DNA of 4,504 nt from a virus (taxonomy: Duplodnaviria > Heunggongvirae > Uroviricota > Caudoviricetes): the IMG/VR virus record IMGVR_UViG_2778261570_000002, positions 1 to 4,504 of that record, one strand, 5' to 3'. The notes under the pieces are model-generated. The model was given only the letters and a program-made list of their open reading frames with translations. It was not told where the DNA came from and made no database searches. Shown piece by piece: positions 1 to 4,504 of the stretch. The position numbers and the translations under genes are program-made. Numbering within the stretch: position 1 is the stretch's first letter; each line of letters starts with the position of its first letter.

Positions 1-107
1 CCGTTGCCGGAGCGCCCTTGCGAACAATTAACCTACTGCGCAAAAAATGAATCTGTGCGGGGGAATTATATCAACCGCGTGGAGAAGCGCCACAATTGCC
101 GAATAAC

Positions 108-140
108 AGGCAAAACAAAGGCCACCCGCTACGGTGGCCC
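108..140 (-). terminator. Putative Rho-independent terminator ending the leftward small-gene operon
   Basis: GC-rich 7-bp stem ggccacc (120-126) / ggtggcc (133-139) with a 6-nt loop. On the minus strand the hairpin is followed by a T-rich tract (complement of aacaaaacaaag, 108-119). It lies about 80 bp downstream of the stop of the 219..392 gene. Confidence 0.4.
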
Positions 141-218
141 TTCAACACAAGCTACACGTTATCCCCAACGCATGAGCATTACCGACAATGCCACATTTGC
201 GGCTGGTGGGCAATGTGA

Positions 219-392
219 TCAGTCAGATTTGGTTCGTTCCAAGGTTTGCAACGAGAGCTTTTTCCTGTGCTCTTTAAGGAATTGCTCAAGGGCAAAAGCA
301 CATGGCGCGAATCTTTCTGATTCATGCTCTATCTTTCTGCGCCGTCTTTTCCGTGTCGGTGATAATGTTTTGGTCAATTCTTTATCGGTCAT
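219..392 (-). CDS. Small, strongly basic hypothetical protein (57 aa from the second ATG; an alternative start at 407 gives 62 aa)
   Basis: Six-frame track ORF 219..407 (-). The internal ATG at 390-392 has an AGGA motif about 8 nt upstream. It sits 57 nt downstream of the 450..755 gene on the same strand. It contains a KRRRRK run suggesting nucleic-acid binding. No family recognised. Confidence 0.4.
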   Translation of the reverse strand: MTDKELTKTLSPTRKRRRRKIEHESERFAPCAFALEQFLKEHRKKLSLQTLERTKSD

Positions 393-449
393 TGTGTTGT
401 CCTGCATAGCAATGCGCCGTAATACCTTACACCACGGCGCTGGTGATGG

Positions 450-755
450 TTATTCCTGCTCTTTGGCCTTGCGACGCTGGAGTTCTTCACGTGCGACGGT
501 GACGAGCTGCCCGATCTCCTCGACAGCTTTGACTCCGATTTTTTCCACCTGCGCCAGCGCATCGAGCGAAGAAACCAGGGGATTTTCTCCGCTTCCTTCT
601 GCCTGGCGGCGGGCGATCTCACCGCGTACAGCCGTAACTATAAAATTCGCTTTAGTTTCCCATGGCTGTAGGGATGCCTCAATGCCACTCACTACTTCAT
701 GTGGAAATCTGGCATTCAGTTGCTGTGATTTATTGTTAACAGAACTCGTGGACAT
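450..755 (-). CDS. Hypothetical protein, 101 aa; first gene of the leftward unit, candidate regulator by position only
   Basis: ATG at 753-755 (minus strand) is preceded by a strong Shine-Dalgarno GGAGGTG (complement of 761-767) with a 6-nt spacer; stop at 450-452. The 180-aa track ORF (450..992) extends upstream through the operator-like repeats with a hydrophobic, low-complexity N-terminus and no RBS, so the shorter start is preferred. Confidence 0.6.
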   Translation of the reverse strand: MSTSSVNNKSQQLNARFPHEVVSGIEASLQPWETKANFIVTAVRGEIARRQAEGSGENPLVSSLDALAQVEKIGVKAVEEIGQLVTVAREELQRRKAKEQE

Positions 756-797
756 GTTTGCACCTCCGATTAATAACGGGATGCAGTGTAATACAAA

Positions 798-853
798 AGT
801 GAATACCAAAAAAGACTTGAAATGGTATTCACCAAAATGTAATCTGAATACCA
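798..853. promoter_or_regulatory. Operator-like repeats in the divergent control region (iteron-like half-sites)
   Basis: gtgaatacca (799-808) and its exact reverse complement tggtattcac (823-832) form a 10-bp inverted repeat with a 14-bp spacer, and a third copy tgaatacca lies at 845-853. The core tattcacc (826-833) is one mismatch from the iteron TGTTCACC. The repeats lie 45-100 bp upstream of the 755 start codon. Confidence 0.4.
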
Positions 854-1144
854 CAAGGGCTGATACATGCAATTCAGCAATTGAAACGACGAAGCCCCGC
901 ACTGTTGGAGCAGTAACGGGGCTTCTAACCAAACCGTTAACTGGAGTAACGATTATGGCTGTAAGACAGCATACCCCACGACTTGCGCACACACAAACGG
1001 TCTTTGTGTGGCGTTTTCTGGCACTAAGTGCCGGAGAATCTCAAATCGTCCACGTAACCGCCTGGACGGAACGCGAAGCGCGTAACCGTTGCCCGTCCGG
1101 TTGTGTCGCTGTATTCGCCGCCCGTATTCGTCAGGGGGTGCGCC

Positions 1145-1405
1145 ATGTGCAATAAAAACACGCCGGACGCAGCCGCCGAAGCCATCAAAACGCTAATGCA
1201 CGCGCTGATTGATATTTCATGCACGGCAGCAACCGCAGAAAAACACATTACCAGAGAGCCGGAGTATACAGGGGCAATAATCCCCCATTCGCTGGCCTAC
1301 GCACAGCTTACCGCTGATATGGCACTGAATGAGGCTAAAGCCATCCTGATTGCTGATTGTGAAAATGGGGGGGGGTTATGCGTGATGATCGTTTTAATGC
1401 CCTGA
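1145..1405 (+). CDS. Hypothetical small protein (86 aa), first ORF of the rightward replication operon
   Basis: ATG at 1145 is preceded by AGGGGGTG (1132-1139), a good SD with 5-nt spacing. The ORF ends at TGA 1403-1405 and its 3' end runs through a G9 tract. No family recognised. Confidence 0.45.
   Translation: MCNKNTPDAAAEAIKTLMHALIDISCTAATAEKHITREPEYTGAIIPHSLAYAQLTADMALNEAKAILIADCENGGGLCVMIVLMP
1367..1375. repeat. Homopolymeric G9 tract at the junction of two overlapping small ORFs
   Basis: Nine consecutive G read directly at 1367-1375. The tract encodes GGG in the 1145 frame and serves as the SD region for the ATG at 1378. Confidence 0.9.
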
Positions 1406-1611
1406 AACAGGAATTTGATGGCGCACCGGATGATACAGGCGATGCGTTGCTGGCTGTTAATGACCTGATAAAGGCCGCATGTTTTTTAATTGGAACCGCT
1501 GAACATTCAGGAACCGGCAACGATATTCTTATTATTGCGTCGGATTATGCTGAATATGTGGCAGAGGCGCGTTACAGAAGAAAATTACCGGAGGATGTAA
1601 GCCATGCATAA
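1378..1611 (+). CDS. Hypothetical small protein (77 aa)
   Basis: ATG at 1378 lies 2 nt after the G9 tract, which can act as SD. It overlaps the preceding ORF by 28 nt in a different frame. Stop TAA at 1609-1611. No family recognised. Confidence 0.45.
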   Translation: MRDDRFNALKQEFDGAPDDTGDALLAVNDLIKAACFLIGTAEHSGTGNDILIIASDYAEYVAEARYRRKLPEDVSHA

Positions 1612-1756
1612 TCATGAAGCACACTTACCTGTAGTGCTGAATGTACCGTCAGATTATACGGGGCGCGTTTTGATATTCCTGGATAAAGGGAAAGTGAAAT
1701 CACAATGCCGCCTTAGAAATAATGAGGTTGTTGGTTCTCTGGCTTTTTTTTTCTGA
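1604..1756 (+). CDS. Possible small ORF (50 aa) not in the supplied track
   Basis: ATG at 1604 has a strong SD GGAGGA (1590-1595) with 8-nt spacing. The start overlaps the stop of the 1378..1611 ORF. The ORF ends at TGA 1754-1756 after a T9 run that encodes FFF. Confidence 0.25.
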   Translation: MHNHEAHLPVVLNVPSDYTGRVLIFLDKGKVKSQCRLRNNEVVGSLAFFF

Positions 1757-1809
1757 AGCCTGTATTCGTGCCGGAATAAAACCGGAATCACTGACAGGAA
1801 AATAAAACC

Positions 1810-2124
1810 ATGAAAAAGAAAAATTCTGGCTTTACTGCCAGCGGCCCCGCTCGGCCTGAAATCCGCCCCGACGATATTTTCAAAGATAAATACGGCGGAC
1901 GAATAACGATAAAAACCGTCGATGATTTTCGCGTGACTTATATCCGCGAAGGTTATGCGCATCCCTGCGTGTCGTCACATATGCGTTTTGAGAGTGAATT
2001 CACCCTGGTAAGCAAAGCACCACCAGCGAACTTAAGCGACATCGACAGAATCATGCGCGTTACAGGTATGGAACGCATTAAGGCAGTACGTGAAATTATT
2101 CGTGAGCGGGGAAAGGCAAAATGA
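1810..2124 (+). CDS. Hypothetical protein (104 aa), translationally coupled to the helicase gene
   Basis: ATG at 1810 has AGGA about 10 nt upstream. Its stop TGA (2122-2124) overlaps the ATG (2121-2123) of the next gene as ATGA. No family recognised. Confidence 0.5.
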   Translation: MKKKNSGFTASGPARPEIRPDDIFKDKYGGRITIKTVDDFRVTYIREGYAHPCVSSHMRFESEFTLVSKAPPANLSDIDRIMRVTGMERIKAVREIIRERGKAK

Positions 2125-3926
2125 AACTGGCACCGAACTTAAAAAAACAGCCACACGACAAAATGACCGAAGTCATTATTTTTGCGGGTAGTGATGCCTG
2201 GGCGCACGCGAAACAATGGCAGGAGCAGGACGGGCGACTTGCCGGCGACAATGTTCCGCCTGTATGGCTTGGAGACAGCCAGCTTGACGAACTGGCAGAC
2301 CTGAAAATTATCGACGATGGTCGCTATTGTGTCCGGCTGTACAAGGCAGGCCACATCAAGCCATCAAATATTAATGCCATCGGGCAAAAGCTGGCGGCGG
2401 CAGGTGTACGGGATGCGAATTATTACCCTGAGGGGATGCACAGCCAGAAGCGGGAGAACTGGCACGAATATCTGGAGCGTGAGCGCCAGAATCTTTCTGA
2501 TGGTCTGGTTATTCAGCTTCCTGTTAAGAAAAAAACAGAAGACAGCGCCGCACCACTGGCGCTTAACCAGATGGGAGCAAGCCAGCGCGGCGAAGTTCTC
2601 CTGGCACGTTATGGCGGTGAACTGGCAATTAATGCGGACTCTGACACCGTTCACCACTACAACGGCGTTGTATGGGAGCCGGTACAGGATAAAGAGTTAC
2701 AGCGGGCTATGGCGCAGATTTTTATTGATGCGGAGATCAGTTATTCGCAGAACGCCATCAAATCGGCGGTCGATACAATGAAGTTAAGTTTGCCCGTAAT
2801 GGGGAATACCGCCCGTAACCTGATTGGATTCAGTAACGGTGTTTTTGATACCCGGACAGGCGATTTTCGGGAGCATGACAAAAACGACTGGCTGTTAATT
2901 GCCAGTGAATTACCGTTCAGCCCGCCAGCAGAGGGGGAAACGCTGGCAACGCATGCGCCGAATTTCTGGAAATGGTTGCGCCGTTCGGTGGCTGAGAATG
3001 ACCGTAAAGCGGATCGCGTACTGGCGGCGTTATTCATGGTGCTGGCGAACCGATACGACTGGCAGTTATTTCTTGAGGTAACGGGGCCGGGTGGAAGCGG
3101 TAAAAGCGTAATGGCGGAGATTTGCACCATGCTGGCGGGTAAGGCCAACACGGTATCGGCAAGCATGAAGGCGCTGGAAGATGCCAGGGAACGCGCGTTA
3201 GTGGTTGGATTTTCGCTGATTATCATGCCGGATATGACCCGCTACGCTGGTGATGGCGCAGGAATTAAGGCCATTACAGGCGGTGACAAGGTGGCAATCG
3301 ACCCGAAGCATAAAGCCCCCTACTCAACACGCATTCAGGCGGTCGTGCTGGCGGTGAACAATAACGCCATGTCATTCAGTGACCGCAGCGGGGGGATCTC
3401 ACGTCGTCGGGTGATATTCAATTTTTCGGAGGTTGTACCGGAAAACGAACGCGACCCCATGCTGGCAGAAAAAATAGAAGGAGAGCTGGCGGTTGTGATT
3501 CGCCACCTGCTTACTCGTTTTTCTGACCAGGACGAAGCTAAACGCCTGCTGTATGAGCAGCAGAAATCAGAAGAAGCACTGGTGATAAAACGCGAGGGCG
3601 ATTCGCTGGTGGACTTCTGCGGCTATCTCATGTCGTCGGTAATGTGTGATGGTCTGTTAGTGGGTAATGCCGAAATTATTCCGTTCAGTCCGCGCAGGTA
3701 TCTTTATCACGCCTATCTGGCATATATGAGGGCACACGGATTCGGTAAACCTGTAACACTGACGCGCTTCGGTAAAGATATGCCGGGGGCAATGGCGGAA
3801 TATGGCAGGGAGTATATGAAACGGAAAACGAAGCACGGTTTGCGTTCAAATGTGACCCTTACAGAGGATTCAGAAGACTGGATGCCATCATGTGCATCGG
3901 TCACAAATGACGATGGAAAAAATTAA
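2121..3926 (+). CDS. Replication protein: SF3 (D5/P4-alpha-type) helicase with a probable C-terminal origin-binding region (601 aa)
   Basis: Longest ORF in the window. Walker A GPGGSGKS at aa 322-329 (nt 3084-3107). Walker B-like hydrophobic stretch ending in Asp, LIIMPD, at aa 366-371. SF3 motif C with Asn, VLAVNNN, at aa 409-415. A cluster of P4-type iterons lies immediately downstream. SD-like GGGGAAAGG upstream of the ATG. Confidence 0.88.
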   Translation: MKLAPNLKKQPHDKMTEVIIFAGSDAWAHAKQWQEQDGRLAGDNVPPVWLGDSQLDELADLKIIDDGRYCVRLYKAGHIKPSNINAIGQKLAAAGVRDANYYPEGMHSQKRENWHEYLERERQNLSDGLVIQLPVKKKTEDSAAPLALNQMGASQRGEVLLARYGGELAINADSDTVHHYNGVVWEPVQDKELQRAMAQIFIDAEISYSQNAIKSAVDTMKLSLPVMGNTARNLIGFSNGVFDTRTGDFREHDKNDWLLIASELPFSPPAEGETLATHAPNFWKWLRRSVAENDRKADRVLAALFMVLANRYDWQLFLEVTGPGGSGKSVMAEICTMLAGKANTVSASMKALEDARERALVVGFSLIIMPDMTRYAGDGAGIKAITGGDKVAIDPKHKAPYSTRIQAVVLAVNNNAMSFSDRSGGISRRRVIFNFSEVVPENERDPMLAEKIEGELAVVIRHLLTRFSDQDEAKRLLYEQQKSEEALVIKREGDSLVDFCGYLMSSVMCDGLLVGNAEIIPFSPRRYLYHAYLAYMRAHGFGKPVTLTRFGKDMPGAMAEYGREYMKRKTKHGLRSNVTLTEDSEDWMPSCASVTNDDGKN

Positions 3927-3937
3927 ACTTATGGAAT

Positions 3938-4168
3938 AACTGTTCACCACTGTTCACCCTATCATAAATGTCTTTTATATCAGTACATTATAGGGTGAAC
4001 AGTTATTTATGAACTGTTCACCAAACTATTCACTGTTCACCTTTTTGATTGTTTATTGAGCTTAAGGGTGAACAGTGGTGAACAGTTGGTGAATAGTTTT
4101 TGTGAAACTGTTCACCCCTTAACATCATGAATAAAAAGGGAAAATCTCAAAAGGTGAACAGGTGAAGG
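3938..4168. repeat. Iteron cluster, putative origin of replication (P4 ori/crr-like)
   Basis: Nine perfect copies of TGTTCACC: on the + strand at 3941, 3951, 4015, 4034 and 4109, and as GGTGAACA at 3994, 4067, 4077 and 4153. At least three one-mismatch copies at 4027, 4088 and 4161. AT-rich spacers at 3959-3992, 4120-4150 and 4169-4200. It is directly 3' of the helicase gene. Confidence 0.7.
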
Positions 4169-4212
4169 GTTAAAATGCAAAAATTTTATTTTATTGCTGT
4201 GAGGTAAAGCCC

Positions 4213-4458
4213 GTGACAACGAAGCACGCAAAAAAACCACAATCTCACGCCCTTGATTTGACAGAACACTGGCTGAGAGTGGCGATAAAAATCATCGATC
4301 GCAACGCGGGAGAAGGATACGCGAAAGCACATCCTGAACTGATAAGCGCATTCATGACAACGGCGGCGGCAAACTTTGCCACGCTGACAGAACGAGAGAT
4401 TGCCGAAGCGGAACAGGTGACAACCATCAACGTTAAACCCGGAGAGCAGACAGCATGA
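4213..4458 (+). CDS. Hypothetical protein (81 aa), first gene of the operon downstream of the origin
   Basis: GTG start at 4213 with SD GAGG (4201-4204) and 8-nt spacing. Its stop TGA (4456-4458) overlaps the ATG (4455) of the following gene. No family recognised. Confidence 0.5.
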   Translation: MTTKHAKKPQSHALDLTEHWLRVAIKIIDRNAGEGYAKAHPELISAFMTTAAANFATLTEREIAEAEQVTTINVKPGEQTA

Positions 4459-4504
4459 CAGCACAGATAGCGGCTTACGGGCGGCTGGTGGCTGACCCGC
4501 AGTT
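4455..4504 (+). CDS. 5' end of a gene running off the window (16 codons visible); SSB-like N-terminal motif, tentative
   Basis: ATG at 4455 with SD GGAGAG (4441-4446) and 8-nt spacing; ATGA overlap with the upstream stop. The visible peptide MTAQIAAYGRLVADPQ resembles the hhhhG(N/R)LxxDP(E/Q) start of OB-fold single-stranded DNA-binding proteins. Only 48 nt are available. Confidence 0.35.
   Translation, partial: MTAQIAAYGRLVADPQ

Follow-up and report, generated by a model that had tools for sequence, protein, structure and literature searches.

The replication gene considered in this study is a member of a known, very common family, the Pri-Rep proteins of phage-inducible chromosomal islands (PICIs), which are relatives of P4 alpha. 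P4 alpha, a protein of 777 amino acid (aa) residues, is a primase, helicase and origin binder, and P4 replication is independent of host dnaG. Pfam places its Zn_Ribbon_Prim domain (PF08273) at residues 30–66 (E 2e-18) and its Toprim_3 domain, which contains the EGYATA motif, at residues 210–299. For EcCICFT073, the model PICI of Gram-negative bacteria, no helper phage was needed for pri-rep together with the origin (ori) to maintain a temperature-sensitive plasmid in DH5alpha, and deletion of pri-rep lowered transfer by about 100-fold (Fillol-Salom et al., PMC6092414). Among the Staphylococcus aureus pathogenicity islands (SaPIs), SaPI1 possesses a separate pri gene upstream of rep, and residues 1–322 of PriRep5 of SaPI5 were invisible by cryo-electron microscopy (PMC9371898). 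The helicase of the staphylococcal cassette chromosome mec (SCCmec) is paired with the primase CcPol-MP, and helicases with D5_N or 'primase C_term' domains are routinely mis-annotated as primases (Bebel, Rice and colleagues, PMC10061031). Here we analyzed a stretch of viral DNA of 4,504 nucleotides (positions 1 to 4,504 of the IMG/VR record IMGVR_UViG_2778261570_000002), referred to as the window throughout, and the P4-alpha-like Pri-Rep gene that it contains (Table 1). With a probability of about 0.55, the product of this gene is a primase-less initiator-helicase that carries a portable, probably non-catalytic, Toprim-like accessory domain and is primed by host DnaG.

The absence of a canonical primase from the window protein was well supported by the sequence tests. 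The whole protein as well as its residues 1–160 and 1–300 were scanned against Pfam, NCBIfam and PHROGs. Even at E<=10, Pfam detected nothing before residue 158 and no match to Zn_Ribbon_Prim, Toprim, Toprim_2 or Toprim_3. The sole NCBIfam match, 'primase_Cterm', lay over the helicase region, and over residues 1–157 PHROGs returned only generic 'primase' labels or families without a known function. Moreover, the EGYATA motif was absent from the protein sequence. In BLASTP comparisons, residues 134–591 were about 50% identical (50–51%) to residues 313–771 of P4 alpha, which comprise the D5_N collar, the SF3 ATPase and the origin-binding winged helix, whereas no stretch of the window protein aligned with residues 1–312 of P4 alpha, which comprise the Zn ribbon and the Toprim primase. 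These results bear out a previous sequence-only reading of the same DNA, in which the protein was suspected to lack a canonical primase domain, no EGYATA-type motif was seen in its N-terminal part and its length was put at about 175 aa below that of P4 alpha; the difference is 176 aa. The positions given in that reading for Walker A (322–329), Walker B (366–371) and motif C (413–415) were confirmed in BLASTP numbering, and its estimate that the helicase core lies about 190 residues nearer the N-terminus than in P4 alpha was close to the actual offset of 179 residues, as Walker A of P4 alpha is at residues 501–508.

Searches with relatives of the N-terminal domain of the window protein (N-domain, residues 1–125) gave no primase either. 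A Pfam search at E<=10 with 44 diverse N-domain sequences yielded scattered single matches only and no recurring family, and a primase domain was found in none of the 20 full-length N-domain proteins scanned with Pfam. When the N-domain profile was compared by hhalign with P4 alpha 1–312 and with a P4-type Toprim profile that was built from 19 alpha homologues, the probabilities were 1.8 and 0.2%, respectively. Three motif pairs noticed by eye, IIFAG/IAEG, PPVWLG/PVVSLG and ENW/DWND, were dropped for want of statistical support in hhalign. In addition, a second-iteration profile search did not link the N-domain to any annotated domain, and a WD40 match in a search of PDB sequences with the profile was a repeat-summation artefact in which no single stretch passed. 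Neither Pfam nor NCBIfam detected an AEP catalytic domain (Prim-Pol, PriCT) in the N-domain, whose 125 residues are too few for an AEP core, and the family alignment contained no conserved Cys or His. Finally, no recognisable primase gene was found in the gene neighbourhoods inspected.

The N-domain was confidently folded as an alpha/beta module when it was modelled by itself, and the same fold was found in the full-length AlphaFold2 (AF2) model, in which the predicted local distance difference test score (pLDDT) was 84. The pLDDT was below 50 at residues 126–145 of the full-length model and at residues 134–140 of the domain model. Thus, the N-domain is probably tethered flexibly to the collar. 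Its best structural matches were the Toprim cores of primases, and there was moderate support for a Toprim-like fold. Foldseek against the PDB, however, gave nothing (best E 0.095) and did not recover the Toprim match, and Foldseek against BFVD gave one match (E 8e-5), an uncharacterised stand-alone protein of 112 aa from an uncultured phage. By topology, the place of the Toprim Glu, after strand 1, is taken by A22-G23, of which position 22 is Ala, Val or Ile in the family, and the place of the DxD, after strand 3, is taken by K75-A76-G77 without a conserved acidic residue. The KIIDDG element at residues 62–67, which the sequence-only reading had noted as a possible but ambiguous hhhhDDG element, is present, but it is not conserved, as the equivalent sequences in the family are IVPDG, IIDKG, LAVDV and others, and it was therefore rejected as the DxD. 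A Toprim-like fold without the acidic catalytic residues of Toprim implies that the protein is most likely no primase despite its name in the databases.

The N-domain is portable. When 1.84 billion representative proteins were searched exhaustively with its profile, only 130 relatives emerged, in all of which the domain was N-terminal. It was fused to four unrelated helicase cores according to Pfam, which were D5_N/SF3/Pox_D5 (P4-type), DUF927, AAA_25 (RepA-type) and VapE, and all four architectures sat in similar integrase-AlpA islands. Judged from the source names, the family was confined to Enterobacterales and Pasteurellaceae, including Escherichia, Shigella, Citrobacter, Klebsiella, Serratia and Pasteurellaceae. 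The identities of the N-domains and of the helicase bodies were discordant. For instance, a DUF927 protein with an unrelated remainder had an N-domain 88% identical to that of the window protein, and for EcCICFT073 Pri-Rep the identity was 71% in the N-domain (residues 1–130) and 43% in the rest, whereas compared with the protein of vB_KppS-Ant the N-domain was only 45% identical and the helicase body 87%. The last comparison marks a clear recombination junction at the linker. These discordant histories indicate that the N-domain was shuffled independently of the helicase bodies and is therefore a recombining cassette and not a decaying stump. The source of the last protein, LR881103.1 ('Escherichia phage vB_KppS-Ant', 16.5 kb), contains terminase, capsid and portal genes and, from the tail module, only a tape-measure gene; it looks like a capsid-forming satellite.

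The same data bear on the idea that the N-terminus is the functionless remnant of a decaying primase or that the gene is truncated or mis-annotated. Truncated and fused derivatives of such genes are indeed numerous in the databases, either as fragments or as fusions to SSB, PerC or capsid sequences. However, the open reading frame (ORF) in the window is intact, its product and a RefSeq protein of equal length are 99.8% identical, the N-domain is confidently folded and conserved from Escherichia to Pasteurellaceae, and its recombination onto four helicases at up to 88% identity is not a pattern of decay, so a remnant is very improbable. Among the derivatives are numerous short proteins that join the N-domain in frame to SSB, PerC, DUF4222 or a capsid domain (P0011, P0016, P0054, P0233, P0234, and P0236), as well as many truncated fragments. 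They look like deletion derivatives of satellites that lost the helicase body.

A small ORF overlapped the start of the N-domain gene in each of the seven loci that were checked (the window, L001, L005, L006, L007, L008, and L009). In E. coli, DUF4222 was directly upstream not only of the gene in the window but also of the DUF927 and RepA versions. The overlapping small ORFs of the Klebsiella, Avibacterium and vB_KppS-Ant loci had no detectable DUF4222 match, and DUF4222 was therefore rejected as a universal obligatory partner. SSB was likewise rejected as an obligatory partner, because the RepA, VapE and Avibacterium loci lack it. The overlapping ORFs are among the observations that would suit an N-domain with a role unrelated to priming, such as control of helicase loading or of hexamer assembly, handling of single-stranded DNA at the melted origin, a partnership with DUF4222 or interaction with a factor of the helper phage or of host defence. 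Such a role would also agree with the flexible tether, with the portability of a domain that in some comparisons is more conserved than the helicase body, with the N-terminal domain of SaPI Rep, which has no known function in print (PMC9371898), and with the structurally similar stand-alone phage protein. On the other hand, the upstream ORF is DUF4222 only in E. coli backbones, a homologue replicates without any helper factor, and a role of this kind leaves the primase position of the domain in four helicase families unexplained. We consider it possible, though on the unlikely side.

The SF3 core of the window protein matched the SaPI5 PriRep helicase 7OLA (E 3e-10), and in a phmmer search the C-terminus matched 1KA8, the solved C-terminal domain of P4 alpha (E 2.3e-24). 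The array that follows the gene (Table 1) contains nine exact copies of TGTTCACC, the P4 type-I iteron, at 3941–4160 in both orientations as well as one GGTGAATA variant. In the whole window there are 10 exact copies of TGTTCACC, compared with 0.13 expected by chance. The octamer also occurs inside the annotated crr repeats of P4, and crr is likewise directly downstream of alpha. The match to 1KA8 and the crr-like array thus argue that the window protein is a P4-type origin binder and helicase, and its function as an initiator-helicase appears well supported by homology. The tenth copy of TGTTCACC is inside the helicase gene, at 3353–3360 on the minus strand, where it overlaps the codons that immediately precede motif C; either chance or an internal binding site could account for it. 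An AT-rich stretch follows the array at about 4165–4210. Rfam matches to plant microRNAs at 3967–4146 (MIR821, mir-395, and MIR1508) were far below the gathering scores and were dismissed as artefacts of hairpins formed by the inverted iterons.

Under the reading that we prefer, that of a primase-less initiator-helicase, the winged helix would bind the TGTTCACC iterons directly downstream of the gene, and the ring of D5_N collar and SF3 ATPase would melt and unwind the origin, as homology to P4 alpha and the SaPI Rep helicases suggests (PMC9371898). The Zn-ribbon/Toprim primase of P4 alpha would have been exchanged at the flexible linker for the 125-aa alpha/beta domain, and the independence of dnaG that characterises P4 would have been lost along with it, so that primers would be made by the host primase DnaG. 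The N-domain itself would be a portable, non-catalytic accessory module. Three of its properties would suit a non-catalytic adaptor to a host replisome component: its location in the place of a primase in four helicase families, its narrow host range and its lack of invariant polar residues, the only invariant positions in the family alignment being A4, G23, A26, and L55. In the speculation that we favour, it would couple a foreign helicase to a component of the host replisome such as DnaG. Because the pri-rep and ori of EcCICFT073 sustain a plasmid without helper phage, a protein of the same architecture plus host factors probably constitutes a sufficient replicon, which argues against dependence on a helper primase. 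The cautious proposal of the sequence-only reading, that the element may rely on a host or helper primase or carry a divergent or novel priming domain, holds, and its helper branch is disfavoured by the EcCICFT073 plasmid.

Several points weigh against this reading. The lack of primase activity, although most likely, is a prediction from sequences and models, and the N-domain residues were assigned to the Toprim catalytic positions via topology rather than superposition. Three family positions are mostly acidic, namely E17 (98%), position 104 (70%) and E112 (86%), and R120 and R122 are conserved; together they could possibly form an unconventional active site. The link of the N-domain to DnaG or to another partner is a favoured speculation, and the DH5alpha result concerns a homologue that is 49% identical and not the window protein.

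An alternative explanation is that the N-domain is a divergent or novel minimal priming domain, which would substitute for a Toprim or AEP primase with an unconventional active site. The conserved acidic and basic positions would suit it, as would the location of the domain exactly in the place of a primase in four helicase families whose members normally have a primase as a fusion or a partner (PMC10061031), the lack of another primase gene in the elements inspected, the structural matches to primase Toprim cores, the self-sufficient replicon that the homologous Pri-Rep and ori form in E. coli (PMC6092414) and the precedent of unexpected primases in mobile elements, such as CcPol-MP (PMC7581432). 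However, the domain has only about 125 residues, none of its acidic residues is invariant and E17 would by topology lie where strand 1 begins, on the sheet edge opposite to the usual active site. In sequence, the domain resembles no primase family. Catalysis of the DnaG type depends on the Toprim acidic cluster in combination with an N-terminal subdomain and a Zn-binding domain, and all three are missing from the window protein. A priming domain of this kind is therefore improbable. It is quite doubtful, too, that the 125-aa N-domain is a hitherto unrecognised minimal priming module, be it a drastically reduced Toprim derivative or a new fold family, that as a portable cassette would confer primase function on any of four unrelated replicative helicases of satellites in Enterobacterales and Pasteurellaceae.

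The coordinates of the features are listed in Table 1. The product of the intact ORF at 2121–3926 is identical at 600 of 601 residues to WP_000761766.1, a RefSeq protein of the same length that is annotated as 'DNA primase family protein'. The DUF4222 stop codon and the start codon of the helicase gene overlap (ATGA, 2121–2124), which suggests translational coupling. Parts of the window matched 1912 of 5426 complete E. coli genomes. In the closest one, NZ_CP148463.1, the locus was near-identical and the surrounding element was flanked by abgR and smrA. The gene order of this element is integrase, helix-turn-helix (HTH) regulator, YlcI/YnfO, Icd-like, three small hypothetical genes, DUF4222 and the 601-aa helicase gene, followed by a hypothetical gene, SSB, major capsid, head decoration, HTH and TerS. 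Capsid-forming PICIs have this layout, and the window represents the replication module of a phage satellite integrated in E. coli. The arrangement is also that of PICIs in general, with a unidirectional int - alpA-type regulator - ... - pri-rep - ori order and iterons directly 3' of the gene. Positions 1–1800 of the window aligned to the closest genomes in pieces only (84% coverage in four pieces), and the matching region of the relatives contained YlcI/YnfO, Icd-like and several small ORFs without a Pfam match; it is a mosaic early region, in which a 383-aa ORF at 4–1155 is probably spurious. Furthermore, NZ_CP148328.1, a circular record of 10,790 bp that was submitted as a plasmid of E. coli, comprises a complete PICI with genes for int, AlpA, YlcI/YnfO, Icd-like, DUF4222, the N-domain helicase and a prohead protease/capsid fusion. 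The record fits episomal replication and is presumably an excised, replicating form of the island.

Table 1. Positions of the replication gene, its domains and motifs, and adjoining features in the window.
Feature	Position	Strand	Evidence
P4-alpha-like / PICI 'Pri-Rep' initiator-helicase gene, 601 aa	2121..3926	+	ORF, BLASTP homology, full-length AF2 model
N-terminal domain, alpha/beta module in primase position, aa 1-125	2121..2495	+	
Disordered linker from N-domain to helicase, about aa 126-150	2496..2570	+	pLDDT; P4 alpha homology starts at aa 134
D5_N collar, aa 158-287	2592..2981	+	Pfam PF08706, E 1e-13
SF3 helicase ATPase core, aa 321-429	3081..3407	+	Pfam DUF5906 (PF19263), E 1e-10
Walker A GPGGSGKS, aa 322-329	3084-3107	+	BLASTP alignment to P4 alpha
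Walker B LIIMPD, aa 366-371	3216-3233	+	BLASTP alignment to P4 alpha
Motif C NNN, aa 413-415	3357-3365	+	BLASTP alignment to P4 alpha
C-terminal winged-helix origin-binding domain, aa 492-587	3594..3881	+	Pfam Pox_D5, E 7e-13
Iteron array, ori / crr-like	3938..4163	.	exact-octamer count; adjoins helicase stop codon
DUF4222 gene	1810..2124	+	Pfam DUF4222, E 8e-18

Genes like the one at 2121–3926 are named "DNA primase" in databases and "Pri-Rep" in the PICI field. If their products are no primases, the annotation is wrong and the priming of these very common satellites becomes an open question. A module that has a narrow host range and recombines among four helicase families shows the pattern expected of an adaptor to the host replisome. 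Knowledge of its partner would explain the way in which foreign helicases are connected to E. coli replication and might explain the host range of the satellites; were the N-domain catalytic, it would represent a new kind of primase. No paper that describes the N-domain was found in the literature, and neither the absence of the primase nor the unannotated, portable Toprim-like domain appears to have been described before.

Compared with the Toprim of DnaG-type primases, such as DnaG of Aquifex and B. subtilis, T7 gp4 and Twinkle, the N-domain differs in that the Glu and DxD places are non-acidic, and the protein has neither the Zn-binding domain nor the N-terminal subdomain of the RNA-polymerase core of these enzymes. 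PriRep of SaPI5 (7OLA) and the self-loading SCCmec helicases Cch and Cch2 share with the window protein the plan of D5_N, SF3 and C-terminal winged helix, and SaPI5 PriRep and the window protein each have a flexibly attached N-terminal part, the linker of the window protein being predicted as disordered (pLDDT <50). Different from SaPI1 and SCCmec, however, the satellite in the window has no recognisable primase gene or domain. P4 alpha shares the collar, the SF3 ATPase, the winged helix and the TGTTCACC cluster 3' of the gene, but it has the Zn ribbon and Toprim (residues 1–312) where the window protein has an unrelated N-domain of 125 aa. The gene backbone, with int, AlpA-type HTH, Icd-like, DUF4222, SSB, capsid, decoration and TerS, is that of a capsid-forming PICI and not that of P4. 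EcCICFT073 Pri-Rep (WP_000761835.1) has the same four-part architecture and is 49% identical over 592 aligned positions, N-domain included. Its gene neighbourhood is also of the type found here, with DUF4222 upstream and a hypothetical gene and SSB downstream. It differs from the window protein in the C-terminal domain, and its island is without a TGTTCACC array, having one chance copy in 17.5 kb. Given the divergence of the body, the other C-terminal domain and the lack of this array in EcCICFT073, the window protein therefore represents a different allele, one with P4-type origin specificity.

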